From assembly GCA_963834935.1 (NCBI GenBank), contig CAWIDS010000001.1:301500-365499 (forward strand): DNA of 64,000 bases, given 5' to 3'. Below the pieces are notes generated by a model. The model ran no database searches. It saw only the letters and a list, made by a program, of their open reading frames with translations, and was not told where the DNA came from. Position 1 is the first letter of the stretch. Each line of letters begins with the position of its first letter. Position numbers and translations under genes: made by a program. Source of the stretch: Candidatus Nomurabacteria bacterium (GTDB taxonomy: Bacteria; Patescibacteriota; Minisyncoccia; Phycocordibacterales; CALRBL01). Of the stretch, positions 9,999 through 64,000 are shown piece after piece.

Positions 9999-10010
9999 GT
10001 GGCAATGATA

Positions 10011-10052
10011 ACAAAAAAGGAGCCCTATACGAAATGAATCGTAAGGGCTCCT
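10011..10052 (-). terminator. Rho-independent terminator for gene 10076..11335
   Basis: Perfect 9-bp stem AGGAGCCCT/AGGGCTCCT (17-nt loop) followed on the minus strand by T7 run. Confidence 0.5.
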
Positions 10053-10075
10053 GGTTGAGGTTTGTTTGTTATCGT

Positions 10076-11335
10076 TTAGCGTTTTCCGCGACCGCCGCCA
10101 CCCGAACGCATTTGCATGCGAGGAGCGGAGGAAGTTGCGAAACGCTGTTGCTGGATCCGCGGCGCCTGTTGCGCTTGCGAACGGAACTGCTGGACCGGAC
10201 GCGACACTTGCTGCGTCGGACGGGACAGAGCCGAACGGGCGGTTGAGGTTTGGGAACCTGACGCCCTCGTCTGGCCTGAAACGCGATTCGACGATGCCGA
10301 CTGCGTGCGGGACAAGCGCTGGACCGGATGCGGAGCAGAGCTCTGCGTGGTCTTTGCCAGAGCTGACGTCGGCTGGACAGAAGGAAGTGTGGAAGCCGAA
10401 GCTGCCACTGATTTCCAACTAGTCAGCTTGGGCGTTGTTGCAGTCGCAAGCTGGCCGTTGGCATTGTATGCCGGGGCGGAACGTGCGACGTGACTCGACT
10501 TCTTGGCGATGGCTGTTGATGCCGTCACTGCCGATGCTGCAGGCGTTGCTGCTGCCGTCGAATTGCCTGACTCGACTACATTGCCGTTCGCATCATACAC
10601 CGGTTGTCCGGACGCATGGCTGATCGTGTTGGGATCAGGCGGCGGGCAGGGTGTAGGATTCGGGCACGGAGTCGGGTTGCATACGGGAGGCGGGGAATAA
10701 TGCGGCGGGCACGGAGCCTGCTGTACTACTCTCACCGTGGTCGTGACATTATTGACATTGACGATCCGCTCACTTTGCTGGCATTGACGCTGGCGCTCAG
10801 GTTGATAGTAAGGCTGATAGTAGCCAGAATCATAGTTTGAGTTCTGGCAACTTGCAACATCCTGCAAAATGTCGCCAGCCCATCCGATAACCACCCCGAA
10901 GTCATGACCCCAATCGATGCTCCTGTTTTGGACGCATGTATCGGTAGTCGCTACAGCCGTCTGCTCCTGGCCTTCATCGGCGGCGACGAGGCGATTGCCA
11001 CAATCGTAGCGATAACAGATGTTTCCCTGCGAGTCGGTGTAATAATACCCCGGCACCAGGTTAAAGCTGCTGACGGCGGCGCGCGGCGTGTTGCCGTACT
11101 CCTCCATCAGGTAACGCTTGCCGCAACGGGAATCGCTCTCGCTGACGTAAATCTTCACGTAGCCGAGCTCTTCGATGTGACGGCGGAGCTGACTGAGAGT
11201 GCGAAGGTGGCTATCGCCCGTGTTTTTTACGCACGGGATGCCGCCAAACGTATCTTGCTGTTCCGCCGACGAAGTCGAGATGAACCCGACGAGAACTGAA
11301 ACGAAAACAAACAAACTGACAATGTGCTTTTTCAT
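10076..11335 (-). CDS. Secreted Cys-rich/Pro-rich low-complexity protein, compositionally atypical (GC-rich)
   Basis: 419 aa; signal peptide MKKHIVSLFVFVSVLVGFISTSSA; Cys-rich N-domain, PCPPHYSPPPVCNPTPCPNPTPCPPPDP stretch, Ala/Ser/Thr/Gln-rich tail ending RSGGGGRGKR; markedly higher GC than flanks. Confidence 0.7.
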   Translation of the reverse strand: MKKHIVSLFVFVSVLVGFISTSSAEQQDTFGGIPCVKNTGDSHLRTLSQLRRHIEELGYVKIYVSESDSRCGKRYLMEEYGNTPRAAVSSFNLVPGYYYTDSQGNICYRYDCGNRLVAADEGQEQTAVATTDTCVQNRSIDWGHDFGVVIGWAGDILQDVASCQNSNYDSGYYQPYYQPERQRQCQQSERIVNVNNVTTTVRVVQQAPCPPHYSPPPVCNPTPCPNPTPCPPPDPNTISHASGQPVYDANGNVVESGNSTAAATPAASAVTASTAIAKKSSHVARSAPAYNANGQLATATTPKLTSWKSVAASASTLPSVQPTSALAKTTQSSAPHPVQRLSRTQSASSNRVSGQTRASGSQTSTARSALSRPTQQVSRPVQQFRSQAQQAPRIQQQRFATSSAPRMQMRSGGGGRGKR

Positions 11336-25469: not shown

Positions 25470-26324
25470 TCACAAAACATTTGCAAACTTATAACCTACA
25501 ATACCATTAAAAGGTCTTATACCCGCATTATGTTTATTCCAAGCAGCCATAAGCACCGGATCACTTTTATCATCGTTACTAATACTTCCATTTCTCATTA
25601 TATCTGCTGCTTTTGATAACTTTATATTATCCTCTCTTGTTCTATTCGATTTTTTATTTAATTGGTCTAAGGCATCATTGCTAGATTGCTGATATTCTCG
25701 CATTCTTTTATTTTCTGCTTCTGCTGCAAGGAATTCTCTTTCTGTGGTATTCCGGTCATTACGAATATTTAGTGTTTTAATCTCTTCTTTTTCCTCCTCA
25801 ACCTCTGATTGTTGGAGCTGTTTATCTTGTACTTGTTTAGACTGTTCCTGTTGCTGCCTATCTCGAACCATCTGTAACCGCGTCATTTTCTGCTGCTGAT
25901 CCTGCTGGACTTGTATCTGCTGCGCTTTTATCTGGACTTCATTCTGCTTTTCCCATTTCTTGTTGTTCTGAACGGCAAGCCACCAGTTGTAACAATGATC
26001 AAGGCTCCAGAATGGCAGTGCATCGAGGTCGGGGATTTCTTCCCCAAGAAAAGTAGCGACCATTCCTAGGACTTTCATGGTCATATCATCAGAACCACTT
26101 CCAACCTCTCCTCGTATCCATAGATAAAAAGAGTAGGATATCTCTACTCCAATATCTATAAAGCGGTTTATGATTACTCCCGATTCAAAAAAAAGGTCCA
26201 AAAGAAACTGAACAAGGTCAATTATTAGGAATGCTCCGAGAACCAAACCCCACTCCGTGTTGCTTATTTTGCTTTTGGTGATCTGGGCCATAGGTTTACA
26301 GCTTGCGAGCCATATCCTCTTCAA
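25470..26324 (-). CDS. Membrane protein with Gln-rich coiled-coil C-terminal half (hypothetical; start uncertain)
   Basis: 284 aa ORF, 2 TM helices then QQIQVQQDQQQ... coiled coil; immediately downstream of VirB4-like gene. Confidence 0.45.
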   Translation of the reverse strand: MKRIWLASCKPMAQITKSKISNTEWGLVLGAFLIIDLVQFLLDLFFESGVIINRFIDIGVEISYSFYLWIRGEVGSGSDDMTMKVLGMVATFLGEEIPDLDALPFWSLDHCYNWWLAVQNNKKWEKQNEVQIKAQQIQVQQDQQQKMTRLQMVRDRQQQEQSKQVQDKQLQQSEVEEEKEEIKTLNIRNDRNTTEREFLAAEAENKRMREYQQSSNDALDQLNKKSNRTREDNIKLSKAADIMRNGSISNDDKSDPVLMAAWNKHNAGIRPFNGIVGYKFANVL

Positions 26325-28117
26325 GCTCTGCTCGCGCTTTCTTCATTGCGAGGACTTGGGCAGGATCCGAGGTGATGATCTGGTCTTCTGTATACGAGGC
26401 GATAATCTTGATGGCAACATGCTTGAGGCCGGCGAAGAAGATTCCCTCCCCTACATCCGATTCAAGAAGAAGATATTTTTCCTCATCGGTTAGGTTGAAG
26501 GTTTTTTGCACTGCATCGATTGAAGAAGGTGATTGCTTGAGAAGAAGCTGGATCGAGGAGTTGGTGATGATCGGCAATCCGTAAGGTGATTTCAGGAAGT
26601 CCTCGACGTCCTGAGTAATGGTAGCAAGGCCGAGATAGTATTTTCGTCCTCGTTTTGCCAAGCCGAGAAGGAATGAGGCAGTGTCTTCTGATTTCATCAT
26701 CCACCATGCCTCGTCGATGACCAGAAGCCTTTTCTTGAGCTCTTTTCGGATGGCATTCCAGATGAAGTGGGTGACGATATACATTGCTACAGGCTTGAGT
26801 TCGTCTTCCATGTCTCGCACTGAGAAGACGACAAATTTCTTGTTAATGTCGACATTTGTCGGCTGATTGATGAAGCCTGCCCATGTTCCGCGAGTATATT
26901 TTGAGAGTTTTGTACCAGACATTCCGCTCCTTCCATTCCCGCAAGCACCATTTCGAAGTCGGACATCAAAGGCGGCTCGATATCAGTGAAATTCGAGTCG
27001 GGAGTAATATCTTTGAGTGCGTAAGTTTCGCTAATAGCTTTGTCGATGATGGCATCTTCTTCAGGGCTTAGTCCACCGAGCATGATGCGGAAAAGGCCGA
27101 CGAGGTTGACGATATTCGAGCGGAGGACGTCAGCATCTGATTCATCTGGCCGAGGATGAGGAAGGTCGAACGGATTGATGTGGTGCTCGGAGGTAGAGGA
27201 GATGTTGAAATAGCGGCCACCGGTAGCTTCAGCCATGTATTCATATTCCTTTTCAGGGTCGATGACGATGACATCGGCATCGAACATGAGTGTTCGGAGG
27301 ATTTCGAGCTTGGTAGCGTATGATTTTCCGGATCCGGCTTTGGCGAAAGTCACGGAATTGTAGTTTTCAAGCGAGAAGCGGTCGAAAAGGACAAGCGTTG
27401 AATTGTGGCGGTTGATGCCGTAAAGAATTCCTTTGTCAGAGGTAAGGTCGAAAGAAATGAATGGAAAGAGGCTTGAGAGAGCGGTGAAGAATTGAGCTTC
27501 GAGTGGATTTCCAGAAGGTCGTCTGCGATAGGTAGCGTGCTCTTGAAAGCCTTGTTCCTGCTGGAAAAGCGCGGGCTTGAGATAGACAAGCTTTGCTTCG
27601 AGGATTGATTTCATTTCCGATTCGATTTTATCGAGTTCAGCGCTCGAATCTCCATAAAGTGAGATATAAAGACCGACATCGAAGATCCTTTCTTGTGCCT
27701 GCTGCAGATCGTCGCGAAGCTTCTCAAGGTCTTGATAGGCAGTATCAAGCATCGGATCGCGGACCAAGCCCTTCTCTTCTCTGATGTGGATCTGGCTTTG
27801 CACTTCAGCGACTTTCTTTTGAAATTGGCGAAGCATTTTCGTGTTTCAATGGGATGGATGAAAATGGAAATATCAAAAACTTTGTCGAGGTTGATGATCG
27901 GCGAGAACCAGTTGTCGCTCAGATAGCGCGGATAAGAAATCACAAAGAAGCTCCTCACAATCTTGTTGCCGAGGTTTATTTCTTTCGAGCTAATTTTCAG
28001 CGCAGAAGGCGAGATGATATCTTTCAGGTCAAGCTCTTGGGACTGATAAAGCTCGCTTGGCAAGCTTGTCAGGTTCTCATTCTTTTGTTTTTTTGTAAAA
28101 ATATCGAGTAGTCCCAT
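26296..28117 (-). pseudogene. virB4: VirB4/TraC/CagE-family type IV secretion ATPase, interrupted by two frameshifts
   Basis: Three overlapping frames (27611..28117, 26787..27836, 26296..26922) that read through as one protein: Walker A AKAGSGKSY, Walker B LLVIDEAWWMM, GLATITQ; shift 1 at the T4 run 27837-27840, shift 2 near 26920-26945. Confidence 0.75.
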
Positions 28118-28746: not shown

Positions 28747-29196
28747 TTAGACTTTAATATTTAAGAGATCATTAAGGCTTTTTTCTTCTCCATCGTATTT
28801 TTTCGAAGCAAGGCTGCCTTTTATATCTTTTAAACTGCTTCTTCTTGTTGTAGGAATGGAGATGATAGCTGTCGGATCATATGACATGTCGATTTCCTTC
28901 GTGGGTACCGGCTTATTTTCTTTTTTCCAGATGTAAAGCTTGTTTTTGGTGAAAAAAAGCACGGCAGCTTGGACTTCGTCAAGGAATGGTCTGTTGTTAG
29001 GCTTGTAAAAAGTCAGGGCGACAAAGAAAGCAAGTACAGGCAAGGCAAGAGGGATGCCGATGAATGCGGGCGTCACGAAATGGTAGATGGTATAGGAAAT
29101 GCCGAGCCCTCCCGCAAGATAGATGAATTCCTTGAACGAAAGAGAAAAGAAAATCTTATCCTCGATCTCGATGAATTGTGGAACCTGGAACTTCAT
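28747..29196 (-). CDS. PrgI/VirB3-like small two-TM membrane protein
   Basis: 149 aa; MKFQVPQFIEIEDKIFFSLSFKEFIYLAGG... layout matches PrgI/VirB3-type proteins that precede VirB4 in Gram-positive-type T4SS. Confidence 0.45.
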   Translation of the reverse strand: MKFQVPQFIEIEDKIFFSLSFKEFIYLAGGLGISYTIYHFVTPAFIGIPLALPVLAFFVALTFYKPNNRPFLDEVQAAVLFFTKNKLYIWKKENKPVPTKEIDMSYDPTAIISIPTTRRSSLKDIKGSLASKKYDGEEKSLNDLLNIKV

Positions 29197-29212: not shown

Positions 29213-30964
29213 TTATTCCGAAACTACCCGAAGGACTTCTTCGATAGTAGTCACACCCTGCACCGCCTTGAATACCCCGTCTTCTATCATGGTAAGCATT
29301 CCTTCTTTCTTTGCCTGCGCTTCTATTTCATCTGACGTCGTTCCTTTCATGACTAATGCCTTGATAGGTGCGCTAACCTTGAGAATTTCATGTATGCCGA
29401 TCCTTCCCGCATAGCCATCTTCCGATTCAGCGCTTTTAATAGGCTTGTAGAACGGGATTGTCTGCCACTCCGCTTTTTCATCGACTATCTTTCTTTCTTC
29501 AGGAACTCCAGAACCCGGGCAATGTCGACTTTCTTGGAAAGCATATCAAGCTCATCTTTGGTGAGAAGGTATTTTTCCTTGGTGACAGCCAGTTTCCTGA
29601 TAAGGCGCTGGCCTATGATACATTCAAGGTCGAGACAAGAGGAATGGCTCTATGTGCATGTCGATGAAGCGTGGAATGGCGCCGGCGGCTGAATTGGTGT
29701 GAAGGGTCGAGAGTACAAGGTGTCCAGTGAGCGAGGCGTTGATGGCGAGGGATGCCGTTTCATTGTCGCGGATTTCCCCCACCATGATGATATCCGGGTC
29801 CTGCCTGACAAGGGAGCGGAGTCCCGAGGCGAAAGTAAAACCGATTTCTGGCTTTACTTGGGTTTGATTGATCCTCTTCATCTGGTATTCGACAGGATCC
29901 TCAATCGTGGAGATATTCACATCGGCTGTATTCAGGATATCTAGAACGGTATAGAGGGTCGTCGTCTTTCCTGACCCTGTCGGACCAGTAGTAAGGATCA
30001 TTCCAGTCGAGAGTTTTGTCGCTTCATATATCCTTTCTAATCCTTCTCCATGGAAGCCGAGATGCTCGAGGGTAAAGCCGGAAACATTTTCCCTAAGCAA
30101 ACGCATTACTGTCTTTTCTCCGTAGTACACAGGCAGGATAGACACTCGAAAAGAGACATTTTCCCCATTCATTTCGATCTTGAAACGGCCGTCTTGGGGA
30201 AGCCTTTTTTCGTCGAGCTTGAGGCTCGAAAGGACTTTGATGCGGGCTGTGATGGAATCGCCTGCATTTTTTGGCAAGATCATGGCGTCGTGAAGTATTC
30301 CATCTATGCGGTAGCGTACTACCACTTCATTTTCTTGAGGTTCGATATGAATATCCGAAGCGTTCTGGATGATGGCATGTTTCAGGAGCGTATCTACGAC
30401 TCGGACTACCGGCAAGTCCTCGGCCATCTTCTGAAGGTCTTTGATGTTGAGTTTGCCGTCCTTGTTCTGATCCCCGACTGATTTTATGGAGACTGATTCC
30501 TTCTGGATGATATCACCGAAGTCAGCCTTGAGGCTTTTCTGGTATTGGAGGATTGCCGACTTCATCGAATTCACGTCAGTAAGGCGTGGAAGAATCTTCA
30601 AGCCCACTTTCTTCTTGACGAAATCGAGTGCGCTCAAGTCATCGGTGTCGAGCATTGCCACCTCAAGCGTCTTATCATCTTTCTTGAAGCCGATGATATT
30701 GTGCTTGCGGGCAATCGGCTCGGGAATGAGAGAGAGAACACTGAAATCTATCTTTTGATCTTTGAGATCCACGAATGGGATCCCAAGTATGTAGGCTTGA
30801 ATTTTTCGGAGATCTTCCTCGGTAATCAGGCTTTTTTGCAGCAGAATATCACCCATGTCTACCCCCTTTTTCTCTGATTCTTCGCGTGCAGTAGCAAGTT
30901 CTTTTTCGGAAACCAATCCCGAATCCATTATGAACTTTTCAAATTGAGCTTTGTTTATGAACAC
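29213..30964 (-). pseudogene. Second PilB/GspE-family secretion ATPase, C-terminal region disrupted by >=3 frameshifts
   Basis: 446-aa frame with Walker A GPTGSGKTTT, Asp/His boxes stops at LLSRP*; the C-terminus continues in two other frames (…IIGQRLIRKLAVTKEKY… then …YKPIKSAESEDGYAGRIGIHEILKVS…GVTTIEEVLRVVSE*) homologous to the PilB C-terminus. Confidence 0.75.
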
Positions 30965-40068: not shown

Positions 40069-40139
40069 GCAGGTATGGTTTAGTGGTAGAACACGTCCTT
40101 GCCAAGGACGAGACGAGAGTTCGATTCTCTCTACCTGCA
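40069..40139 (+). tRNA. tRNA-Gly (anticodon GCC)
   Basis: Acceptor GCAGGTA/TACCTGC, anticodon stem CGTCC/GGACG with loop TTGCCAA, T-arm GAGAG-TTCGATT-CTCTC; no CCA encoded. Confidence 0.85.
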
Positions 40140-40149
40140 CAAAAAATAA

Positions 40150-40443
40150 CTATTTGCACAATTCGACCAGTGCTTCTCTGCTATCTTCCTTCTCTACTTT
40201 GTTTGATCTCTCGAAGCCACACTTCTGGCACTGAAGAAGTATCTTTTCCTTGTCTCCCATTTTCTGATATCCGATCGGTTTCATCATTCCCTGGCATTCC
40301 TCAAGCCTATCACCCGGATTTATATCCACATGTTTGCTCCAGAGGCATTTTGGGCAATGGTTGGTGTAACCAGTCCCCTGCACTTCCACGCCGCAATGCT
40401 GACAGATGAAATTCTCAATTGTGCGGGTGAATTTTTTTGCCAT
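40150..40443 (-). CDS. Small zinc-ribbon protein, RNHCP-domain-like
   Basis: 97 aa with CxxC...NHCPKC...C..CQKC Cys pattern incl. N-H-C-P motif. Confidence 0.5.
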   Translation of the reverse strand: MAKKFTRTIENFICQHCGVEVQGTGYTNHCPKCLWSKHVDINPGDRLEECQGMMKPIGYQKMGDKEKILLQCQKCGFERSNKVEKEDSREALVELCK

Positions 40444-40469
40444 AGTTATTTTGCTTAGATTAGCCTATG

Positions 40470-41741
40470 TTAGCTCATATTGAAAATCGAGCAACAAAAA
40501 ACCTCCGACACGTTCCCACTTGCGTGGTACTTGTGCCGGAGGTAGGTGCGTTTACGCTTCCGGGAATACTTCCGGGAATAACTGAGCCTCCAGCTCCTGT
40601 AGGTTGCTGGGAATGACCTCTTCCAAGGGTTCAGGAAGAGAAGGTACCGACTTTTCGCCGCCTCGTTTCGCCGCCTCGTTTCGATGCTGCTGATGACGAA
40701 CGCTACGGCAGCGAGCCATTCCGAGCCCGTACCACGGGCACGGGTTGGCTCGCGTCGAACTGCAGATGTTATTCTCGCAGTCGGTTTGACGGCTGCGTTC
40801 GAAACCTCCGCTGATGCAGATACGCACGATTTCGACAATCCTTTCGTAAGGGATCTTCGATTTTGGACGGGCATGCGTCTTCGTTCCATTAGCAACAATG
40901 GTTACCTCCCCATCGGCACGAGTAACCCCATACCAGCAGTCTTTGTTGCTGATCTGCCCCCCAATAGCGAGGTCTTTCCAGGCAATGTTTCCCAAGTTCC
41001 CTTCCTCACTCCGAAGCGCACAGATGATGTCAAGCGCTGCTTTACGGAGTTTCTTACGAGGATCGAAGTAGATTTGGGTCCCTTCTTCCCCGAACTTGAT
41101 TAAGACATTGATCCTCCCTCCGTGGTCGGACCGGGCGTAGGCCACCGTTTCCATAGAATCCGATTCGATGTACCCGAACAGCAAAGGCTGATCGCTGACA
41201 CCTTTCACCCCCTCCACCTGAATCTTCAGGTCGTATTCGTCTTTGACGACCACATCGATGAAGCGCTTTTGTTGCGTGTAGTACTCTCCCAGCAACATCA
41301 GCGTAACGTCGATCGACTTCTGAGGGTCGTTAGGGTAGTTGTTGTTATACAACTTCACGATTGCCTCCAAATCCATGAAGCCCAGGTTCGGTTGCGTGTC
41401 AGCGTTCAATGAATAGGAGAGGAGTTTTCTAAAAACTTCCTGATCCGCAAGTCCCATGGCCTCAGCCATGAGAATGGCGGTCGATTTCCCTTCTTTTCTC
41501 CCCCCTTCTGCAGCTTGTCATCGAAACGGCCGTGGCCGATTCCGAGTAACAAGTATCCGGCCTTTTCGAACTGCGTCTCAGACATGTTGCCTTGCAACTT
41601 GTTCCAAAACAGCAGTTCCGCCGTTGTTATGCCTGGGAAAACCTTTTCCCCCCCGATGATGCGCGCAAACCAATACGCCAAAATCTCATCGAGATGCGGG
41701 CCCGTGTGGAACACCACATGTTTAACTACTGTCGTTTTCAT
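40470..41741 (-). pseudogene. GC-rich decayed gene of unknown function (three overlapping frames)
   Basis: Frames 41406..41741, 40552..41469, 40470..40898 overlap and read through; composition much GC-richer than flanks; contains 13-bp tandem duplication. Confidence 0.5.
40653..40678. repeat. 13-bp perfect tandem duplication (TTTCGCCGCCTCG x2, partial third)
   Basis: Direct read of sequence; non-multiple of 3 so frame-shifting inside the decayed ORF. Confidence 0.8.
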
Positions 41742-41890
41742 CCGATTACCAATCTAAGGGGCAAATAACCCCAGTTGTTTTTATTAAAGAGCAACCACGA
41801 AGTTCCAATATAGAACCACCGCTTCTTTAAACTGGCCTTATTATAGCATGTATATATGCAAAAGTCAATTAACTTTTATTTAGATTTTAT

Positions 41891-41966
41891 TGGTCGGAGT
41901 GCAGGGATTCGAACCCTGAGTCGCTTGATCCCAAATCAAGAATGTTAGCCGTTACACCACACTCCG
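41891..41966 (-). tRNA. tRNA-Pro (anticodon UGG), CCA encoded
   Basis: Minus-strand cloverleaf: acceptor CGGAGTG/CACTCCG, anticodon stem CTTGA/TCAAG loop TTTGGGA, T-arm CAGGG-TTCGAAT-CCCTG, 3' ACCA. Confidence 0.85.
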
Positions 41967-41993: not shown

Positions 41994-42386
41994 TTAAATG
42001 ATAAGGTTTTCAAGGTGCTCTATCCTATAAAGCTCGTGAGTACCTCTTTTTATGACTACCGTGATAACAGAAAATTCCCATTCGACTTCATCAGAGACTT
42101 CCCTTTCAGCTAAATATGTCTGAATTGTCCTTTTGAGCCTTCGAATTTTCCATTTATGGACATTATCCTCAGGCCTATACCAGTTTGTCCCATTAAAAAA
42201 GAAGTTCGACGTAATAGTTTTAACCTCTATAAAGTACATAATCCCCTTTTTTGATGCAATAATATCCAACTCACCCCATTTCTTAAGGTAATTTCGCTCA
42301 ATTATCGTATAGCCTGATTTTTCTAGAAAGTTACATGTGTAACTTTCACCAATGTCTCCTACTTCTCTTTTTAAGGTTTTAGCCAT
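41994..42386 (-). CDS. yraN: YraN-family (UPF0102) predicted endonuclease
   Basis: 130 aa; GESYTCNFLEKSGYTIIERNY...GELDIIA...MYFIEVKT pattern characteristic of YraN. Confidence 0.8.
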   Translation of the reverse strand: MAKTLKREVGDIGESYTCNFLEKSGYTIIERNYLKKWGELDIIASKKGIMYFIEVKTITSNFFFNGTNWYRPEDNVHKWKIRRLKRTIQTYLAEREVSDEVEWEFSVITVVIKRGTHELYRIEHLENLII

Positions 42387-42925: not shown

Positions 42926-44401
42926 TTGTTGACAATGATCAAAAATATATCCAAAAATATTCCTGAAACTGTTTCACATGTAACTCAAACCCTGAAAAAG
43001 GCGGGTTTTGAGGCATATATTGTGGGTGGCTGCGTAAGGGACCTCATTTTAGGTCTTAAGCCAAAGGATTGGGATGTGACGACAAACGCTACTCCGGAAC
43101 AGATAATACCCTTATTTACCAACACTTTCTATGAGAATGACTTTGGAACGGTCGGGATGGTGAACCAGGACGTTTCTGATGAAACGTTGAGGGTGATAGA
43201 AGTCACTCCATACAGGGTAGAAAGTGGTTACAGTGACATGAGGCACCCTGATGAGGTTAAATTCAGCCAGAGCCTAGATGAAGACCTTAAACGAAGGGAT
43301 TTCACCATGAACGCCATTGCTTGCGATACTGAGCTTGTAGATCCTCATAAAGGACAAGAAGATATCAGTGAGAGAATAGTGAGGACGGTAGGGGATCCGG
43401 ATAAACGCTTTCAGGAAGATGCCTTGAGAATGTTAAGGGCAATTAGATTTACTGCCGTATTAGGCTTCCAGATAGAATCGAAAACAAAGGAAAGTATACT
43501 TAAAAATAAAGGGCTGTTGGAATTTGTATCAAAAGAAAGGATCCGCGACGAGTTCATAAGGATAATCCTCTCAAAGAACCCTCAAAAAGGTCTTGAAGCC
43601 TGTATTGAAGCGGGAATAATGTCCTATATAATTCCGGAGCTTGAGGAAGGTATTGATATAGGACAAAATAAAGCCCACAAATATAACGTTATTGAGCATC
43701 TATTAAGGACATTGCAATGCGCAGCCGACAAAGACTATTCTCTGGAGCTTCGATTGGCGAGCCTTCTTCACGATATAGGGAAGCCCCGATCGAGGCGTTG
43801 GGCTGATGATAAAAAAGAATGGACATTCTACGGACATGATGTCATTGGAGCAAAAATGGCAGAGAAGATTCTTGATCGTCTGAAATTTCCGCGAAAGACA
43901 ATTGATCTCGTAAAAAAATTCGTGCGATGGCATATGTTCTTTTCTGATACGGAACATATTACTCTTTCTGCTGTCAGGAGAATCGTTGTAAATATAGGAA
44001 GGGATAATGTATGGGACCTGATGAATCTCCGTGTGTGCGACAGAGTAGGGACCGGTCGACCGAAAGAGAATCCGTACAGGCTTCGAAAATACAAATCGAT
44101 GGTTGAAGAAGCGCTGCGTGACCCTATATCAGTTGGGATGCTCAAGCTCGATGGCAAGGATATCATAGCTGTCACAAAATCAAATCCTAGCCCTAAAATA
44201 GGCCATATTTTGCACGCGTTGCTGGAAGAAGTATTGGAAGATCCTTTATTGAATACCGAAGAATATCTCAACAAAAGAGCAGTTGAACTAAATGAATTGC
44301 CTGCAGACGAACTTGAAAAGATAGGCAAGAGCGGAAAGGAAAAAAAGGCTGAGGAAGAAGAAAAAGAAATTGAAGAGCTTCGCAAAAAATATTTCCTATA
44401 A
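42926..44401 (+). CDS. cca: CCA-adding tRNA nucleotidyltransferase with HD domain and Lys/Glu-rich C-terminal tail
   Basis: 491 aa; PolB-type NTase head GGCVRDLILGLKPKDWDVTTNATPEQI, RRDFTMNA, HD motif LHDIGK. Confidence 0.85.
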   Translation: MLTMIKNISKNIPETVSHVTQTLKKAGFEAYIVGGCVRDLILGLKPKDWDVTTNATPEQIIPLFTNTFYENDFGTVGMVNQDVSDETLRVIEVTPYRVESGYSDMRHPDEVKFSQSLDEDLKRRDFTMNAIACDTELVDPHKGQEDISERIVRTVGDPDKRFQEDALRMLRAIRFTAVLGFQIESKTKESILKNKGLLEFVSKERIRDEFIRIILSKNPQKGLEACIEAGIMSYIIPELEEGIDIGQNKAHKYNVIEHLLRTLQCAADKDYSLELRLASLLHDIGKPRSRRWADDKKEWTFYGHDVIGAKMAEKILDRLKFPRKTIDLVKKFVRWHMFFSDTEHITLSAVRRIVVNIGRDNVWDLMNLRVCDRVGTGRPKENPYRLRKYKSMVEEALRDPISVGMLKLDGKDIIAVTKSNPSPKIGHILHALLEEVLEDPLLNTEEYLNKRAVELNELPADELEKIGKSGKEKKAEEEEKEIEELRKKYFL

Positions 44402-44748
44402 AAACGAAAACACGCCCCGAAATAAATAAATGGGTACGTGGTTTCTAAAGAAGCACCGAGCCGTCGTTCGCGAAATTTATCTCAAAAAATAAACTAAAAG
44501 TGAAAATAATATTTCGACTGCGCGGCAAAGCACCCTTTGGAAAGAACTATCTTCTGATCATCACCGATTAGTGACATCAACAAACACTTTTTAAAATTAT
44601 CCTTGATCAGTAAGTCCTGAGTAAATTGTATCAGTAATAAAAGACATGTAAAGGACAACAAGTGTAAACTGGGGATAACTTCACACATCTCCCTTAACGA
44701 CATAATTCAGTATTTGAAAAAATGAAGTCGGAGGAGTAGAATGTATGA

Positions 44749-44934
44749 ATGATAAGCAAAAAAGATTCAGAAAATGACCATAGGTACATTCGGGGCCTTA
44801 AATTTATGGCGGGTGCCAAGCTGTATGATATTTTGCATAAAAATAAGAAAGATAAAGAAGTAGAAAGTGAGCTACAAAAGCAGGTAACTGAACTTCAGGA
44901 AAGACTTAAGAAGTTAGAAGAGGGTCAAAAGTAA
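44749..44934 (+). CDS. Hypothetical small coiled-coil protein
   Basis: 61-aa ORF, weak. Confidence 0.25.
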   Translation: MISKKDSENDHRYIRGLKFMAGAKLYDILHKNKKDKEVESELQKQVTELQERLKKLEEGQK

Positions 44935-45065
44935 AATTTGACTTTATCCACTTTCCCGATTAGTATCTGAAACCTGCCTCAAGGTATAATAAAATCCGCC
45001 TTCCAGTTGGAAAGCGGATTTATCGCAAGATTTATATTACTTTTCAACCTAAGGCCCGATTAACT

Positions 45066-45281
45066 TTAAGGTTGAAAAGGAGACGGAACAGGCATTTTCA
45101 TTACGACATCAGCCATCTTTCCTAACTGAACTTCAGTTTCGGAAGTTAGCTCTTCGCGGGTGAAGATGCCTTTTCTTATTAACAACTCCGCAATAGAAGC
45201 CATTGTGGCAGTGTTAATATTTTGAAACACGCTTGGGCCAATTCTGGGAAGCATCGTTTCAATGAATTTTTCGTTTTTCAT
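45066..45281 (-). CDS. Hypothetical small protein
   Basis: 71-aa ORF adjacent to IS element, weak. Confidence 0.3.
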   Translation of the reverse strand: MKNEKFIETMLPRIGPSVFQNINTATMASIAELLIRKGIFTREELTSETEVQLGKMADVVMKMPVPSPFQP

Positions 45282-45599
45282 TGGTCTTTGGTATTTACAC
45301 TATCTTTCTCTCAACCTAAAAGAGTGGGGCGTTTGTGTCGACCTCACCTATTAAAACCGCCCACTTATTATCTGAACATTTATTCTGATACTAAATGTGT
45401 GATTCTAACTCGGCGCAATCATGGGTGGAAACTGGTTAGAAAACAAAAAAGAGACAAATAAAAAAACCCGTTTCAACGACTCTAGCGAAGGGCGAGCAAC
45501 AAGACTTTCGTTTTTGTTGTTTTGCCTTTTCAGGCGTTGGACTTTTAATCCTTCGCCAGATGCGTTGTAACAGGTTCTACCTGCTTGTTGCTCTACTTA

Positions 45600-46625
45600 T
45601 TGAGGGAGTCCAAACCCTACTCTTTATTAAGTAACTTTGGAGAGTATGATACACTAATACGATATAAAAGTCAAACATGACCAAAAACCAATTTCTCTCT
45701 ATCTTGAAGCGTGCAATAAAGCACCGAGCAAAACCCCAAAGCGTTCCCTGTCGTTGCCTCGATTGTTGTAATGAAAGACAAAAGCGTCAAGGTAAGCCTG
45801 TAGGTGTTGCTTCGAAATGACCTTGTAAGTGCCTTTGATGCTTCTCTTTAGGTGAGCCACGAAAGTCTCAATGGTGTTGATATGAATATCACCTCTCACG
45901 TATTCTCCTTTGCTGTGGTCAACCGAGTGTCGGTCGTAAGTCTTATCAGATCTTTTGTATACCTTGCTACTGTCGGTGATGATGCTTGTAGCCTTAGTCT
46001 CGATATTCCTTTCAATGAAGTCCTGCATTGTCCTCGCAGAGCTGTCTTCCATGACTTCCGCTCTCATCTTTCCATATCGCTCTACCGCCATGGTGATGAT
46101 TGATTTTCTAGCCATTACTTGTCCTAGCTTTTCATTATTCTTTCCTGCGTTCCCTTTGCCTCCGAAGTAAGCAGTATCTATCTCCACGTCTCCTTTGAGC
46201 TTTAACTTGTCCTGTGGCAAAGCCTTGCGTATCAGGCTCAATATCCTCCAAGCGCACTTGTAGGTAACTCCAAGCTGTCGTTCCAGTTCCTTAGCCGAGA
46301 TACCGCTCTTGGCGTTTGAGAAGATAAAGATTGCATGAAACCACAAGGATAGTGGAGTATCTGACTTGTGGAAGATTGTAGTCGAAGCAGGGGCAATCTG
46401 AAAACGACACTTCGAGCATTGATACTGCTTGCGACCCTTTATCTGTCGGTACGTTCCGCCACATGAGCAAGAACGGCTGTGCAAGGTATCGAATATCAAG
46501 TCTAAGCATGTCTCGTCTGTGGGGAAGTCCCTCCTTAAATCTGCTATTGAGTATTTTGTTTCTTTTGCCATGTACCTATCCTATACCCTAGTGATTATGT
46601 TGTCAAGGGATAAGTGTGGATAACT
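45600..46625 (-). mobile_element. IS1595-family insertion sequence (boundaries approximate)
   Basis: Contains single transposase ORF; terminal inverted repeats not confidently resolved. Confidence 0.4.
45699..46571 (-). CDS. IS1595-family (ISXO2-like) DDE transposase with N-terminal zinc-ribbon
   Basis: 290 aa; N-terminal CxxC...CSKC zinc ribbon (transposase zinc-ribbon domain), DDE core, typical length. Confidence 0.85.
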   Translation of the reverse strand: MAKETKYSIADLRRDFPTDETCLDLIFDTLHSRSCSCGGTYRQIKGRKQYQCSKCRFQIAPASTTIFHKSDTPLSLWFHAIFIFSNAKSGISAKELERQLGVTYKCAWRILSLIRKALPQDKLKLKGDVEIDTAYFGGKGNAGKNNEKLGQVMARKSIITMAVERYGKMRAEVMEDSSARTMQDFIERNIETKATSIITDSSKVYKRSDKTYDRHSVDHSKGEYVRGDIHINTIETFVAHLKRSIKGTYKVISKQHLQAYLDAFVFHYNNRGNDRERFGVLLGALLHASR

Positions 46626-47393
46626 TTATTTCAGCTCAAGCAAAAGAGGGCAGTGATCTGAACCAGTTATATCTTCATATATGCTTGCCTTCTTGATCTT
46701 GTCCTTTAAGTCTTCGCTCACGAAGAAATAGTCTATTCTCCAGCCAACATTCCTTTCCCTCGCGAAGGTCTTCATATCCCAGTAGGTATATTTATCCTTG
46801 ATGTCTCCGTTCTTGAAACGGAAAGTATCTATGTAGCCGTGGGAAATGACTTTGTCGATCCATTTCCTTTCCTGGGGAAGGAATCCAGTGTTCATTGCAT
46901 TTTCCTTTGGTCGCGCAAGATCTATTTCCGTGTGGGCAGTATTCACATCACCACAGAAAATCACGGATACCCCTTTCTTTTTTAATTTGTCGACATATTC
47001 CAGAAAGGCATCGTAATATTTCATCTTGAAGTCCAAGCGGATAGGGCCACCTCCGCCATTAGGGAAGTAGATATTTATAAGAGTGAATTCCTCGAAATGG
47101 AGGGCGATAAATCGTCCTTCCTGATCGAGTTCTTCGACTCCAAGGCCATAATCAATGTTCAGAGGAGCTATTTTCGTATATATAGCCACTCCACTATAAC
47201 CCTTTCTCCCTTTTGAATGGTCAAAATAAGCTATATAACCCTTTATTTCTTTGAGTTCTAGCGGAAGCTGGTCAGGATGAGCTTTCGTTTCCTGAAAGCA
47301 GAACATATCCGGCTTTTCTTTGATGATCCAATTAAGCTTTCCTTTCTTATGCCAAGCCCGTATACCGTTTACATTCCATGAGATTATTTTCAT
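46626..47393 (-). CDS. xth: Exodeoxyribonuclease III (AP endonuclease, Xth family)
   Basis: 255 aa from MKIISWNVNGIRA; EEP-family motifs (QETK, GDVNTAH, SDHCP). Confidence 0.9.
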   Translation of the reverse strand: MKIISWNVNGIRAWHKKGKLNWIIKEKPDMFCFQETKAHPDQLPLELKEIKGYIAYFDHSKGRKGYSGVAIYTKIAPLNIDYGLGVEELDQEGRFIALHFEEFTLINIYFPNGGGGPIRLDFKMKYYDAFLEYVDKLKKKGVSVIFCGDVNTAHTEIDLARPKENAMNTGFLPQERKWIDKVISHGYIDTFRFKNGDIKDKYTYWDMKTFARERNVGWRIDYFFVSEDLKDKIKKASIYEDITGSDHCPLLLELK

Positions 47394-47397
47394 ATAT

Positions 47398-48324
47398 TTA
47401 TTTCTTATTATGGAAATTCTTATACACATCGCGAAGATGCTTGTCAGTGACATGGGTATAGATCTGAGTGGTGTTTATATTAGCGTGACCGAGAAGCATC
47501 TGGACAGCACGAAGGTCAGCGCCGTTCGAAAGCAGATCCGTAGCGAAGACATGCCGGATGACATGCGGGGTCACTTTTTTCGATATACCCGCTTTGATAG
47601 CATAATATTTTACGATCCGTTCAATCGAGCGGCGTGTCAGCCCCATTTCGCCTTTGTCTGATTTCCTTTCGTTTGATATCTTCACGAAGAGCGGGTCATC
47701 GAGATCTTTTCTCAGTGAAAGATATCGTTTTACTGCTTCTTTTGCCTCTTGAGAAAGGAAAACCACCCTTATCTTTCCGCCTTTTCCACGGATAGACAGC
47801 TCGTCCACTTTCAGGTCGATATCTCGAGAAAGGGAACAAAGCTCGGACACACGCAAGCCGGTAGAAAAAAGAAGTTCCAAGATCGCTTCGCCCCGCGCTT
47901 TTTTCAGAGGTTCTTTTTCGCTCTTTGGTGCGTCGAGAAGCCTCTTCAATTCTTCTTGTGTAATCAGATCGAGAGATCGTTCTGACACTTTTGCCAGCTC
48001 GATCTGGTCCGCTGCAAGGGAAGAAGCTCCACGCTTTGCAAGGTATTTGAGAAAGGAGCGCAAGGCGATGAGATAGTAGTTCTGTGTCTTTTTCTTCATC
48101 GTGTCGCCAGTCGAACGGTTATTTCCTTGTGATTGGCGGTTGAGCCAGAGCCTGAACTCCCGAATGACGTCTTCGGTGATGTCTTTCGGATCCTTCGCCT
48201 TGGTATGTTCGAGAAAAACCGACAAATAGTGGTCATAATTCCTCACTGTATTCAAAGCGCGGCCCTTTTCTATCTCGATATACTCAAGGAATTGCTTCTT
48301 AAACTCCGAAAGATTGTGCGACAT
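47398..48324 (-). CDS. xerC: Tyrosine site-specific recombinase XerC/XerD family
   Basis: ~309 aa from MSHNLSEFKK; C-terminal catalytic region R..HxxR..LLGHANINTTQIYTHV with Tyr nucleophile. Confidence 0.85.
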   Translation of the reverse strand: MSHNLSEFKKQFLEYIEIEKGRALNTVRNYDHYLSVFLEHTKAKDPKDITEDVIREFRLWLNRQSQGNNRSTGDTMKKKTQNYYLIALRSFLKYLAKRGASSLAADQIELAKVSERSLDLITQEELKRLLDAPKSEKEPLKKARGEAILELLFSTGLRVSELCSLSRDIDLKVDELSIRGKGGKIRVVFLSQEAKEAVKRYLSLRKDLDDPLFVKISNERKSDKGEMGLTRRSIERIVKYYAIKAGISKKVTPHVIRHVFATDLLSNGADLRAVQMLLGHANINTTQIYTHVTDKHLRDVYKNFHNKK

Positions 48325-48379
48325 AAACAAATTATAACATATTGCAAAAAGGATGCGTTTATGGTAATGTTTCGTGACA

Positions 48380-48652
48380 ATGTTAACAAAAGCAAAAAAG
48401 CAGAAAATCATCAAAGAAGTCAAAATTCACGATACTGACACCGGTTCCTCCGAAGTGCAGATTTCCCTTATAAGCAAAAGGATCGATGAATTGGCAAAAC
48501 ACTTGAAGAAAAATCAGAAAGATAACCACTCCCGAAGGGGCCTCCTTCAGCTTGTGGCCGACCGCCAGTCACATTTGAAATACCTCCAGAAAAAGAGCCC
48601 AAAGCGCTACCAGTCGATTACCAAAAAACTCGAACTTAAGAAGAAAGCCTAA
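48380..48652 (+). CDS. rpsO: 30S ribosomal protein S15
   Basis: MLTKAKKQKIIKE...HLKKNQKDNHSRRGLL...highly conserved S15 signature (HxxDxxSRRGL). Confidence 0.9.
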   Translation: MLTKAKKQKIIKEVKIHDTDTGSSEVQISLISKRIDELAKHLKKNQKDNHSRRGLLQLVADRQSHLKYLQKKSPKRYQSITKKLELKKKA

Positions 48653-63120: not shown

Positions 63121-64000
63121 TGAAAAAAGCCTTACTTTCAATACTCATCATAACTGCAATATTCCCGATCTTTTTTGGCTTTTTTACTCCTGTCCATGCT
63201 CAAACAAATCCAATGGATTCTGATGCTTCATATATGCTTGGAGCTAAGGATATTAGTGGTTATGTTCCTCCAGCCCCGACTGCTTCTACTTTTCAAGCGA
63301 CATGTTTTGATGAAAGCCAATCAGGATTGGGCTATCTGACCAGCTTCAGTATCACGGGCTGTATGGCCTCGGCGAGCAATCTTCTGCTTTGGGTAACGGC
63401 TCGCTTCTTGTGGGTTGCAGGGGTATTTTTCGATAAGACTCTCGATATAGGCTTAAATTTTGCTGCGTTGCTTACGCATATTCCTGTAGTTGATGTGGGA
63501 TGGAAGATTTTTCGCGACATTGCAAACATCTGCTTCATCTTCATCCTGCTTGCTATCGCTATCGGGACCATTCTTCGCATCGATAGCTATAATGTGAAGA
63601 AGCTCTTGGTGCAAGTGATAATTACCGCCCTTATTCTTAATTTCAGCCTTTTCTTCACTAAAGTAGTGATTGATGCCTCAAACATCCTCGCATTGCAATT
63701 TTACAATAAGATAAGCTTGCAAGGAGGAGGACAAGGAGCAAGCGCAGATCCCTTCGGAGGAGTTTCAGATGGTGGCATTTCTCAGGCATTTCTCAAAGGT
63801 CTTAGCCTAACGAGCATATATAATTCTGGAGCGACTCTTCAAGGTTCACCTGATCCTACTCAGACCCCCGGAGGTCTGAATCTCGGTGAGAATATCATCG
63901 CGATCGGCCTCGGAGGATCCATACTCATACTTATTGCTGCCTTTGCTTTCATTGCGGGCGGAATAATGTTCATTGTCCGGACTGTCGTCCTTATGTTCGT
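63121..64000 (+). CDS. Partial (3'-truncated by window) polytopic membrane protein with signal peptide; possibly VirB6/TrbL-like
   Basis: Open frame from ATG 63121 to window end; signal peptide then >=5 TM helices with Gly-rich loops; not in ORF track because no stop in window. Confidence 0.4.

Follow-up and report, generated by a model that had tools for sequence, protein, structure and literature searches.

The minus-strand region between tRNA-Pro(UGG) and the gene of an RNHCP-domain protein is occupied by one complete transcription unit, made up of a promoter, a leader of about 100 nt, an ORF of 396 codons and an intrinsic terminator. This unit lies in a 64,000-nucleotide stretch of DNA from Candidatus Nomurabacteria bacterium, the whole of which is referred to here as the window. 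Overall, the observations are probably best explained by a complete accessory gene for a DHH-like protein that carries one, most likely real and very recent, frameshift. It represents a fresh pseudogene of a fairly ordinary kind, or else a slip of sequencing, and not the wreckage of an integrated element. For annotation purposes, one gene with a defined fold and a single lesion replaces two or three fragmentary 'hypothetical' ORFs.

Gene structure, expression signals and the frame break

The features of the unit, with their window coordinates, are the following.

41840-41868, minus strand: sigma-70-type promoter (TTGACT, 17 nt, TATAAT, with TG upstream)
41742-41784, minus strand: 3' portion of the 5' leader, containing a small hairpin (GGGGU-UAUUU-GCCCC), covariance model R1
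40552-41741, minus strand: whole DHH-like gene, 396 codons after restoring one G at 41500-41505
41406-41741, minus strand: N-terminal ORF of 111 aa from the ORF list (open frame 41409-41753 in the HMM search)
41500-41505, minus strand: G6 homopolymer, the frameshift site, from three-frame translation and codon view
40552-41469, minus strand: body ORF of 305 aa from its first ATG, from the ORF list (frame open to 41517)
40470-40898, minus strand: overlapping ORF of 142 aa, spurious, with no family HMM match
40653-40683, no strand: perfect 13-bp tandem repeat, 2.4 copies (TRF score 62, 100% match; also found by the repeat search)
40557-40580, no strand: perfect 12-bp tandem duplication (two copies), in frame, from TRF and translation
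40495-40543, minus strand: intrinsic terminator (11-bp GC-rich stem, inner 4-bp stem, then U6)

The first-pass annotation had described a coding remnant split over three overlapping frames. When the ORFs of the window were searched with the family HMM, the coding sequence proved to be confined to two of them. The N-terminal ORF scored 94 bits over profile positions 10-97 and the body ORF (searched as 40555-41517) 266 bits over positions 90-377, so that the coverage is contiguous across the two. The N-terminal ORF consists of 81 native residues, which include the H-x3-H-x-D-E and G-x-G-x-G-x-F-D motifs, followed by 30 out-of-frame residues, and the body ORF, found in public records as the 301/305-aa proteins P0001/P0007, encodes residues ~92 to 396. 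Insertion of one G into the G6 run at 41500-41505 (C6 on the plus strand) gave a single 396-codon ORF with no internal stops. This run is the only frame break in the gene, and it lies upstream of the interval ~41406-41469 in which the frame had been thought to need correction. The in-frame version of the tract would read AAG GGG GGG AGA AAA GAA GGG (KGGRKEGK), and the window is one G short of it. Homologues have NGARKEGK or EGGRKEKK at this site, and the relatives have no G-run there (GGG GCA, GGT TCA).

The lesion would have arisen by strand slippage that turned a G7 tract into G6 at 41500-41505, single-G loss in a homopolymer being a classic product of this process. It parts the first 81 residues, with all the putative metal ligands, from the other 315, and no functional protein would be expected from the gene as sequenced. 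The gene would then be either a fresh pseudogene or the 'off' state of a slippage-prone tract.

Apart from this indel the gene is well preserved. The frame-restored product aligned over its full length with P0002-P0006 at 32-52% identity, and the intact homologues that aligned with it end to end have 362-406 aa. Its identity to the members of its own subfamily, 45-52%, is within the range found among these members themselves. At columns that are at least 90% conserved, the window protein showed 8 deviations versus 6-9 in five intact subfamily members, and further counts of this kind gave 18 versus 17-21 and 35 versus 36-39. Neither comparison, of identity or of conserved columns, gave a sign that the window lineage evolves faster or under relaxed constraint. 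The marks of long decay, namely multiple disabling lesions and lost conserved residues, are absent; the gene has one 1-nt indel, no stops, and its conserved residues and expression signals in place, and the earlier description of a decayed remnant does not hold.

The promoter, leader and terminator of the gene are intact. The promoter has 11 of 12 consensus matches, and TTGACTTT is present at the equivalent place in the related loci L003, L088, L092 and L123. The leader hairpin of the window matched covariance model R1 with 28.1 bits (E=2e-4). All 21 matches to R1 with E<0.1 in 887 kb were located directly upstream of family genes, and covariation was found in 3 of the 5 hairpin pairs, a level reached in none of 500 shuffles. 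At gathering as well as permissive thresholds, Rfam offered no family that fits either the leader or the gene; the only sub-threshold match, to an S15 leader (E=1.2), was treated as chance. The terminator stem arms are 40533-40543 and 40501-40511 (inverted repeat I3), and its RNA folds with -28.6 kcal/mol (z = -3.7), none of 200 shuffles being as stable. An equivalent hairpin with a T-run follows the genes of L003 and L088.

The perfect 13-bp tandem duplication, which had been taken to shift the frame by itself, is real and spans 2.4 copies, and we estimate its chance expectation in 64 kb at ~1e-5 (4^-18 per site). It does not shift the frame. The repeat is translated in frame as R-N-E-A-A-K-R-G-G-E-K, residues that align gap-free with RREEATRQGEQR in P0002, and the present ORF passes through it to the TAA at 40552-40554, 9 nt before the terminator hairpin. 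The 12-bp duplication adds four C-terminal residues (LFPE-VFPE-A*); the C-termini of P0002 and P0003 are ...LEELLFPK and ...LEEQLFQK. Only three perfect tandem repeats were found in the whole window, two of them in the tail of the DHH-like gene. The C-terminal tail that contains the 13-bp and 12-bp repeats is variable and disordered, and neither repeat harms the present frame.

Removal of one repeat copy had been proposed as the way to rebuild the ancestral ORF. This reconstruction was rejected: it gave a tail (…AAKSRYLLFLNPWKRSF…NMS*) that runs through the terminator and is unlike the tails of homologues, with shuffle p values of 0.16-0.92 after copy removal versus 0.02-0.05 for the present frame. 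The tail of ORF 40470-40898 likewise extends through the terminator hairpin and did not resemble the tails of homologues (shuffle p 0.16-0.92), and this ORF is not coding. As a separate observation, to preserve the frame a perfect 13-bp duplication must have been joined by a second event that is unexplained, or have originated by a conversion-like process, which counts against the preferred explanation.

Protein family and predicted fold

The protein encoded by the restored gene belongs to a large, Patescibacteria-wide family whose members are annotated as 'hypothetical' only. The family comprises 2,158 representative clusters (50%-identity clusters, E<=1e-3), and 79 family loci were found in GTDB species genomes, mostly titled Patescibacteria or CPR lineages. 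Nearly all of these 79 loci are intact ORFs of 345-370 aa. Neither Pfam nor NCBIfam has a curated family for it, and searches of Pfam, NCBIfam and PDB sequences with the protein and with profiles returned no family beyond weak matches to ChrB_C.

The conserved positions of the family are H12, H16, D18, E19, G67, G69, G71, F73, D74, D115, R244, N285 and a C-terminal Cys cluster. Every invariant residue is present in the two ORFs of the window, the homology extending over ~350 aa (alignments A2/A3). The N-terminal domain carries the motifs H-x3-H-x-D-E and G-x-G-x-G-x-F-D-(E/D)-(H/K), and the C-terminal four-Cys tail has the pattern C-x4-C-x7-C-x9-C. Most family members have G-G-G-x-F-D-E-H at the second motif. 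The protein of L092, which occupies the same slot as the window gene, has F-D-H-H, the DHH signature, and the subfamily of the window protein has F-D-D-K, in which the motif His is replaced by Lys.

The AF2 model of the restored protein had a pLDDT of 92.2 and a pTM of 0.84, and its best fold matches were DHH-superfamily proteins at 8-14% sequence identity. We are confident that the family has a DHH/DHHA1-like two-domain fold, the predicted structure showing the DHH plus DHHA1 alpha/beta arrangement. The protein is putatively a metal-dependent phosphoesterase or a nuclease whose substrates would be nucleotides or short RNA; given that Lys replaces the DHH-motif His in this subfamily, it may instead derive from such an enzyme.

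Chromosomal slot, composition and tRNA association

The neighbourhood of the gene includes four further features.

40069-40140, plus strand: tRNA-Gly(GCC) (ARAGORN; Rfam tRNA, 73 bits), right-hand boundary of the conserved neighbourhood
40150-40443, minus strand: gene of an RNHCP-domain zinc-ribbon protein, 97 aa (Pfam PF12647, E=1e-27)
41891-41966, minus strand: tRNA-Pro(UGG) (ARAGORN, Rfam), left-hand boundary of the slot
41994-42386, minus strand: UPF0102 (YraN-like) gene, a conserved neighbour (Pfam PF02021, E=8.6e-19; synteny)

The two flanking tRNA genes, which had been recognized at the outset, were both confirmed by ARAGORN and Rfam, and tRNA-Pro(UGG) lies 149 nt upstream of the DHH-like gene on the same strand. 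Gene order was compared on 39 RNHCP-anchored metagenome loci, across which RNHCP is 49-79% identical. The conserved order is CCA enzyme, tRNA-Gly(UCC)/tRNA-Arg(UCG), UPF0102, tRNA-Pro(UGG), RNHCP, tRNA-Gly, HU and RNase Y. The order and strand of the tRNA-Gly(UCC)/tRNA-Arg(UCG) pair vary among the 39 loci, and the tRNA-Gly after RNHCP is of the GCC type in nearer relatives (L003 and L084-L092 included) and of the UCC type in more distant ones. The tRNA-Pro(UGG) gene is kept in L003 and L084-L117.

The comparison with related genomes lacking the insert, as had been proposed, showed that the slot is polymorphic for the presence of the gene: in the sister clades L084-L087, in L101, L103 and in other outgroups it is empty, RNHCP starting 0-7 nt past tRNA-Pro. 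According to the RNase Y tree, it is occupied by a family member only in the clade of the window, that is in the window itself, L003/L088/L089 and L090/L092. In the closest relative, L003, the DHH-like gene, the slot and the two tRNAs are all as in the window, and the neighbour genes are 68-89% identical to those of the window. Because L003 shares the gene, the slot and both tRNAs, the arrangement is taken to be inherited within the clade. In the more distant loci L015, L052, L025 and L029, a family member is found near HU/RNase Y or the CCA enzyme. As the slot is empty in sister lineages, the gene would be an accessory one that the small clade of the window has kept from its common ancestor onwards; in view of the distant loci, an ancient presence with repeated precise loss from the slot is also possible.

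The slot (40444-41890) contains the DHH-like gene alone, without integrase or recombinase. The nearest tyrosine recombinase (47398-48423) and an IS1595 transposase (45699-46571) lie beyond the conserved block of CCA enzyme and tRNAs. The repeat search detected no tRNA-3'-derived att repeat flanking the slot, and no relatives of the gene were found in the IMG/VR viral contigs. In L003 and the window, the cassette has an AT-rich direct repeat of 7-8 nt (AAAATCTA / AATCTAA) on its two sides, possibly due to chance. The proposal of an integrated element or its cargo stood in part: the slot is variable and the gene accessory-like and GC3-rich, but no integrase, att repeat or larger element accompanies it.

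The region was rightly described as GC-rich, with 52.1% GC versus 44.7% in the rest of the window, a value that is elevated and not extreme: 2.6% of same-sized windows are equally GC-rich. The GC3 of the gene, 0.64, is about 1.9 sd above the mean of 0.495 (sd 0.076, 46 ORFs) and is matched by two other ORFs among the 46. A GC3 excess over host or neighbours, of up to +0.38, is seen across the family. High GC characterizes the whole family and is no mark of recent arrival here. Family genes also lie close to tRNA genes: a distance of 400 nt or less is about six times as frequent as expected. The tRNAs concerned are of many different kinds, and the family gene usually follows the tRNA gene directly, in the same orientation. 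The conserved leader hairpin of the family has the form GGAGC-loop-GCUCC and is located shortly before the ribosome-binding site.

These features tentatively suggest that the family is a self-contained cassette (TTGACTTT promoter, leader hairpin, ORF and terminator). It could be a one-gene cassette without integrase that has inserted repeatedly into tRNA 3' flanks, or a putative phosphoesterase directed at tRNA or RNA ends, coupled to tRNA loci and autoregulated through its leader hairpin. Both readings fit the combination of tRNA proximity, host-independent GC3 and a slot that is precisely empty in sister lineages, but we consider them unlikely as they stand.

Origin of the frameshift and relation to known systems

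A 1-nt difference in a homopolymer is also the commonest sequencing and polishing error, and the gene may be intact in the organism, the missing G being an error of homopolymer base-calling, polishing or assembly. The lesion is indeed exactly one base, in a homopolymer, and the expression signals and conserved residues of a stop-free gene are pristine. Moreover, the organism is carried by one sequencing run only: exact look-ups of the 305-aa ORF and RNHCP returned one Logan contig plus the source genome. An exact look-up of P0001 gave no record, and the JGI metagenomes yielded no close relatives with G7 or single-copy alleles. The Logan contig, L004 (run ERR10755936), which could have been assembled from the very reads behind the deposited genome, is identical to window positions 40121-41527 over 1,407 bp, including the G6 run and both tandem repeats. 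A real recent frameshift is likelier than an assembly artefact because this independent k-mer assembly reproduces the G6 run and the repeats. The start of L004 at 41527 was also considered as a G6/G7 bubble, and this idea was dropped because the position of the tract is at odds with the arithmetic for k=31. Three frameshifts were noticed in the window, in two accessory genes, namely the DHH-like gene and a VirB4/TraG-like ATPase gene. The two in the latter, near 27,780 and 26,900, could mean an indel-prone assembly, but they lie outside long homopolymers (A4 contexts), and the ORF map showed no splits in the long, housekeeping-size ORFs (about 50 kb), a distribution unlike that of random error. 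An artefact is for these reasons rather unlikely, and a real, very recent frameshift remains the preferred reading.

It is improbable that the gene is the multi-frame, decayed cargo remnant of a foreign element integrated at a tRNA gene, with the 13-bp duplication as one of several inactivating lesions. The empty slot in sister and outgroup lineages, the GC3 above that of the neighbours, the position directly downstream of a tRNA 3' end, the AT-rich repeat around the cassette and a tRNA adjacency of the family far above expectation would all agree with such an origin. Against it, there is a single lesion, the third ORF is spurious, and the 13-bp repeat region is gap-free versus homologues in a frame that ends at the terminator. 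The slot holds no integrase, tRNA-derived att repeat or other cargo, the nearest mobile-element genes lie beyond the conserved block, viral relatives were not found in IMG/VR, and the shared arrangement in L003 shows that the gene is not a recent arrival. The 'decayed remnant' part of this account is largely refuted. A functional frameshift, in which the G-tract acts as an on/off switch (contingency locus) or a -1 slip of the ribosome or RNA polymerase on G GGG GGA yields the full-length protein, appears highly improbable. The heptamer formally fits X XXY YYZ in the upstream frame, the needed shift is -1, phase variation typically acts on homopolymer tracts, and the expression signals are all intact. 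Yet a tract of 6-7 nt is short for efficient phase variation, the relatives have no G-run, and ~55 full-length family genes examined were all single ORFs. We read the nearest downstream hairpin (CATGGC-TGAG-GCCATG), ~28 nt past the heptamer, as too far for a classical stimulator. A programmed -1 frameshift was considered unlikely, as the slippery site is not conserved and no stimulator is well placed.

The frameshift as such is an ordinary one, and the eye-catching 13-bp repeat turns out to be harmless. What wider value there is, a modest one, comes from the family, which may be the interesting object rather than the frameshift. Its more than 2,000 clusters, DHH-like fold, leader hairpin absent from Rfam, association with tRNA genes and host-independent GC3 excess are leads that can be tested for RNA or nucleotide metabolism in Patescibacteria. 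Many of the canonical RNases are not known from Patescibacteria.

The loss of one base from a G7 tract in an otherwise intact ORF resembles homopolymer-slippage pseudogenes and contingency loci; unlike in these, the tract is short and absent from relatives. The location just downstream of a tRNA 3' end, the variable presence and the deviant codon GC recall tRNA-associated islets and integrative elements. In contrast to these, the slot holds one gene of 1.4 kb, equipped with a promoter and a terminator of its own and inherited within a clade, and has no integrase, tRNA-fragment direct repeat, phage or plasmid genes.

At the protein level, relatives P0015, P0025 and P0031 matched PF09828 (ChrB_C, the C-terminal domain of the chromate-resistance protein ChrB) at residues 6-140 with 26.6-28 bits (values of 28.0, 27.6 and 26.6 bits, just above the gathering cut-off of 25), and 32 of the 89 family members matched it at E<=1; the window protein and its subfamily did not. 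The family N-terminal domain is probably related to ChrB_C. Unlike ChrB, the family lacks the ChrB N-terminal domain and extends for a further 220 residues, and no chromate-resistance genes are nearby. MYG1/UPF0160 proteins, metal-dependent hydrolases that form a family of DHH-related 3'-5' RNA exonucleases, start with H-x-G-x-F-H-x-D-E followed by D-V-G-G...D-H-H. These motifs resemble H-x3-H-x-D-E and G-V-G-G-G-R-F-D-E-H of the family. Membership in MYG1/UPF0160 is not supported: the 89 members gave no Pfam match to UPF0160 at E<=1, and no MYG1 structure was among the fold matches.

The closest likeness in fold is to the DHH/DHHA1 superfamily (NrnA nanoRNases, pAp phosphatases, TM1595/GdpP/PggH phosphodiesterases, RecJ, Cdc45 and yeast PPX1), whose two-domain architecture is shared by the model of the window protein. 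The family differs from it in that the window protein and 89 members matched neither Pfam DHH (PF01368) nor DHHA1 (PF02272) at E<=1, and in that the superfamily series DxD, D, DHH, D is not followed, motif I being H-x3-H-x-D-E and not D-x-D. It also has the extra C-terminal four-Cys tail, and the subfamily of the window protein carries FDDK. Only the divergent copy of L092, with its literal F-D-H-H, matches the superfamily motif, most family members having F-D-E-H.

Reading frame of the DHH-like gene

The tRNA flanks described in the first-pass annotation were confirmed by ARAGORN and Rfam. Between the two tRNA genes, the minus strand carries an RNHCP-domain gene and three overlapping ORFs:

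40069-40140, +, tRNA-Gly(GCC) (ARAGORN, Rfam)
40150-40443, -, RNHCP-domain gene, 97 aa (Pfam E=1e-27)
40470-40898, -, ORF of 142 aa (ORF list)
40552-41469, -, body ORF of 305 aa (ORF list)
40557-40580, perfect 12-bp x2 tandem repeat (TRF)
40653-40683, perfect 13-bp tandem repeat, 2.4 copies (TRF)
41406-41741, -, N-terminal ORF of 111 aa (ORF list)
41742-41784, -, leader hairpin (covariance model)
41868-41840, -, promoter (TTGACT, 17 nt, TATAAT, with upstream TG; 11/12 consensus)
41891-41966, -, tRNA-Pro(UGG) (ARAGORN, Rfam)

The split was mapped by three-frame translation and alignment to five intact homologues (362-406 aa). Residues 1-81 come from the N-terminal ORF and the remainder from the frame of the 305-aa ORF, with the junction within K-G-G-R-K-E-G-K. 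There the minus-strand DNA (41500-41505) reads AAG GGG GGa gaa aag, and one added G (AAG GGG GGG AGA AAA GAA GGG) gives a single 396-codon ORF with zero internal stops. Across the window, the family HMM has no hits beyond exactly two ORFs, one covering profile positions 10-97 and the other 90-377, so that 40470-40898, the frame entered upon deletion of one 13-bp copy, is judged non-coding. The decay over three frames that had been proposed is thus reduced to two frames and a single lesion, one missing G. Since this frameshift lies inside the N-terminal domain and cuts all putative metal ligands from the remainder of the protein, no function is expected of the gene in its sequenced form.

The perfect 13-bp tandem repeat is present as described, and its role as a frame-shifting lesion is contradicted by the homologues. 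Its translation, R-N-E-A-A-K-R-G-G-E-K, aligns gap-free with R-R-E-E-A-T-R-Q-G-E-Q-R in P0002, and likewise with the equivalent residues of P0003, both intact homologues. The present frame ends in ...LQELEAQLFPE(VFPE)A*, against ...LEELLFPK* in P0002 and ...LEEQLFQK* in P0003. In shuffle tests of the tail, the present frame gave p ~0.02-0.05 and the one-copy-removed frame p 0.16-0.92; this similarity lends moderate support to the present frame. Moreover, 9 nt separate the present stop (40552-40554) from a strong hairpin with a U6 run after it (-28.6 kcal/mol, z = -3.7). Removal of one copy, the suggested route to an ancestral ORF, therefore produces a tail that is unlike those of the homologues and would run through this terminator. 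As for the 12-bp repeat, it keeps the frame and adds four residues; the repeat-bearing tail is disordered in the AlphaFold2 model (pLDDT 51-72). That a perfect 13-bp repeat arose in this low-complexity tail without net frame change could be due to a compensating indel, or to an event resembling conversion. Two of the three perfect tandem repeats in the whole window lie at this locus; the third (63774-63795, 11 bp x2) is GGCATTTCTCA.

Origin and age of the lesion

Most likely, the feature is a real and recent one-base frameshift in an otherwise intact, uncharacterised DHH-like gene. The lesion falls in a G6 run, and a systematic homopolymer error would be an unlikely, though not negligible, explanation for it. 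It is not a one-off of a single assembly: Logan contig L004 (run ERR10755936, 1,407 bp) is identical to window 40121-41527, including the G6 run and both repeats. Besides this run, no other sample carrying the source organism was found, and JGI metagenomes contained no close alleles. A second broken gene was observed in the window, a VirB4/TraG-like P-loop ATPase (26296-28117, minus strand) in which two frameshifts, one near 27,780 and one near 26,900, leave the coding sequence in three frames. Neither frameshift is within a long homopolymer. The neighbours of this ATPase gene are a PrgI-family gene (28747-29196) and a T2SSE/PilB-like ATPase (29624-30964). Going by the window ORF map, the long ORFs of housekeeping size are unsplit. 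This pattern of broken accessory genes beside unsplit long ORFs favours real mutations in dispensable genes, which we consider probable.

The restored protein bears no mark of long-term decay. Its identity to the five closest homologues is 45-52%, and these share 44-55% among themselves (P0002/P0003, 73%). At family columns conserved to >=90, 80 and 70% in 83 other family sequences, it deviates at 8, 18 and 35 positions, compared with 6-9, 17-21 and 36-39 in intact subfamily members. Both promoter and terminator are intact. With a single lesion and its conserved residues kept, the gene does not fit the decayed remnant of an integrated element that had been suggested.

The tRNA-bounded slot in relatives

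The closest relative found, L003 (ENA contig k141_959239), has the order UPF0102, tRNA-Pro(UGG), P0003 (intact), RNHCP, tRNA-Gly(GCC), HU and RNase Y. Its neighbouring genes are 68-89% identical to those of the window, and its homologue only about 50-52%. An RNHCP-anchored search yielded 39 metagenome loci. As the earlier proposal of a comparison with genomes lacking the insert anticipated, the slot is empty in L084-L087, the more distant L101 and L103, and others, where RNHCP starts 0-7 nt past tRNA-Pro; in L086, a TTG start directly follows the ...ACCA of the tRNA. Such spacing would imply co-transcription of tRNA-Pro and RNHCP, with processing at the junction. Elsewhere the slot is occupied by a homologue of 45-50% identity (L088/L089), by a highly divergent DHH-like family member with an uncharacterised 450-aa ORF (L090/L092; 2603-3952), or by unrelated, uncharacterised ORFs of 396 and 192 aa (L098/L099; 3025-4905). 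In L099, L103 and L109, an inserted trypsin-like secreted-protein gene (368-408 aa) separates RNHCP from tRNA-Gly(UCC).

A neighbour-joining tree of RNase Y groups the window with L092/L091 and L003/L088/L089 in a single clade, with the empty-slot lineages as sister group and outgroups. The simplest reading of this distribution is that the gene was gained once, in the ancestor of the window's clade. Ancient presence followed by losses is also possible, because the more distant L015, L052, L025 and L029 also have a family member close to HU/RNase Y or to the CCA enzyme. Neither an integrase nor a repeat derived from a tRNA was found in the slot; an AT-rich direct repeat of 7-8 nt is all that marks the cassette borders, and is weak evidence. 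Of the integrated-element proposal there remains the accessory nature of the gene and the variability of its tRNA-bounded slot.

A gene cluster (45699-48423, minus strand) lies 4-6.5 kb from the DHH-like gene, past a conserved CCA-enzyme/tRNA block; the adjoining 44401-45699 (1.3 kb) holds short ORFs only:

45699-46571, -, IS1595/ISXO2-like transposase (Pfam E=1.5e-32)
46626-47453, -, Exo_endo_phos nuclease
47398-48423, -, XerC/D-like tyrosine recombinase

Family-wide features and predicted function

The GC excess noted in the first-pass annotation was found (52.1% in the region vs 44.7% in the rest of the window); the composition read there as foreign is a trait of the family, since GC3 is higher in the family gene than in the flanking ORFs at 87% of 46 loci, L043, L050, L045, L003, L088 and L123 being examples (mean +0.10, max +0.38; Wilcoxon p=4e-7). 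The body ORF has a GC3 of 0.64 (window mean 0.495, sd 0.076), high yet equalled by two other ORFs. The excess is strongest in AT-rich hosts. GC3 of the gene vs its neighbours is 0.52 vs 0.21-0.33 in L003 and L088 and 0.62 vs 0.29-0.41 in L123. Frequent transfer could account for the excess, as could selection acting on the codons or the mRNA. Around 10 kb the window is at its GC-richest (57.9%). The stretch is a 419-aa ORF (10076-11335, minus strand) without Pfam match; its GC2 is unusually high at 0.54, an imperfect tandem repeat of 21 bp lies within it (10188-10227), and it overlaps a TsaE ORF (9564-10418) in the upstream extension of the latter.

Among 55 full-length loci (L005-L083, L088, L123), 18 carry a tRNA gene within 400 nt of the family gene, 21 tRNA genes in all, where the flanks of these loci predict 3.3 (Poisson p=6e-11). 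Many tRNA identities are represented; 18 of the 21 are upstream, 12 of these on the same strand at 110-310 nt. A leader hairpin (consensus CCGGAGC-N4-5-GCUCC), followed by an A-rich stretch and the SD, stands directly 5' of the ribosome-binding site, for instance at L003:738-780, L088:3715-3757, L012:3589-3631, L010:2343-2385 and L123 about 2345-2385. With a covariance model of the hairpin based on 18 seeds, a search of 887 kb returned 21 matches at E<0.1, each immediately 5' of a family gene; most are seeds, and L048 and L011 are clearly independent. Three of five pairs covary (0/500 shuffles as high), in an alignment fitted to the model, and no Rfam family matches. As its 3' arm is anti-SD-like, the hairpin may control translation or serve as a protein-binding operator. 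These three features leave the verdict on the gene unchanged, yet are the most worth following up.

A pattern scan of GTDB species genomes retrieved 79 family loci, nearly all intact ORFs of 345-370 aa, with record titles mostly from Patescibacteria/CPR and some from WOR-3 or Gammaproteobacteria; a full HMMER scan gave 2,158 representative clusters at E<=1e-3. All available source names are 'hypothetical protein'. The AlphaFold2 model, from an 89-sequence alignment, reached pLDDT 92.2 and pTM 0.84. Conserved residues are H12, H16, D18, E19, G67, G69, G71, F73, D74, (H76), D115, R204, R244, N285 and four C-terminal cysteines; one divergent member has a literal GGGPFDHH, and the window's subfamily has FDDK at the same site. 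We infer a metal-dependent phosphoesterase or nuclease with nucleotides or short RNA as its substrate, perhaps altered in the window's subfamily. The window protein matched nothing in Pfam or NCBIfam, and a profile search of PDB sequences none; in several relatives, the N-terminal ~135 residues score just over the cut-off of Pfam ChrB_C.
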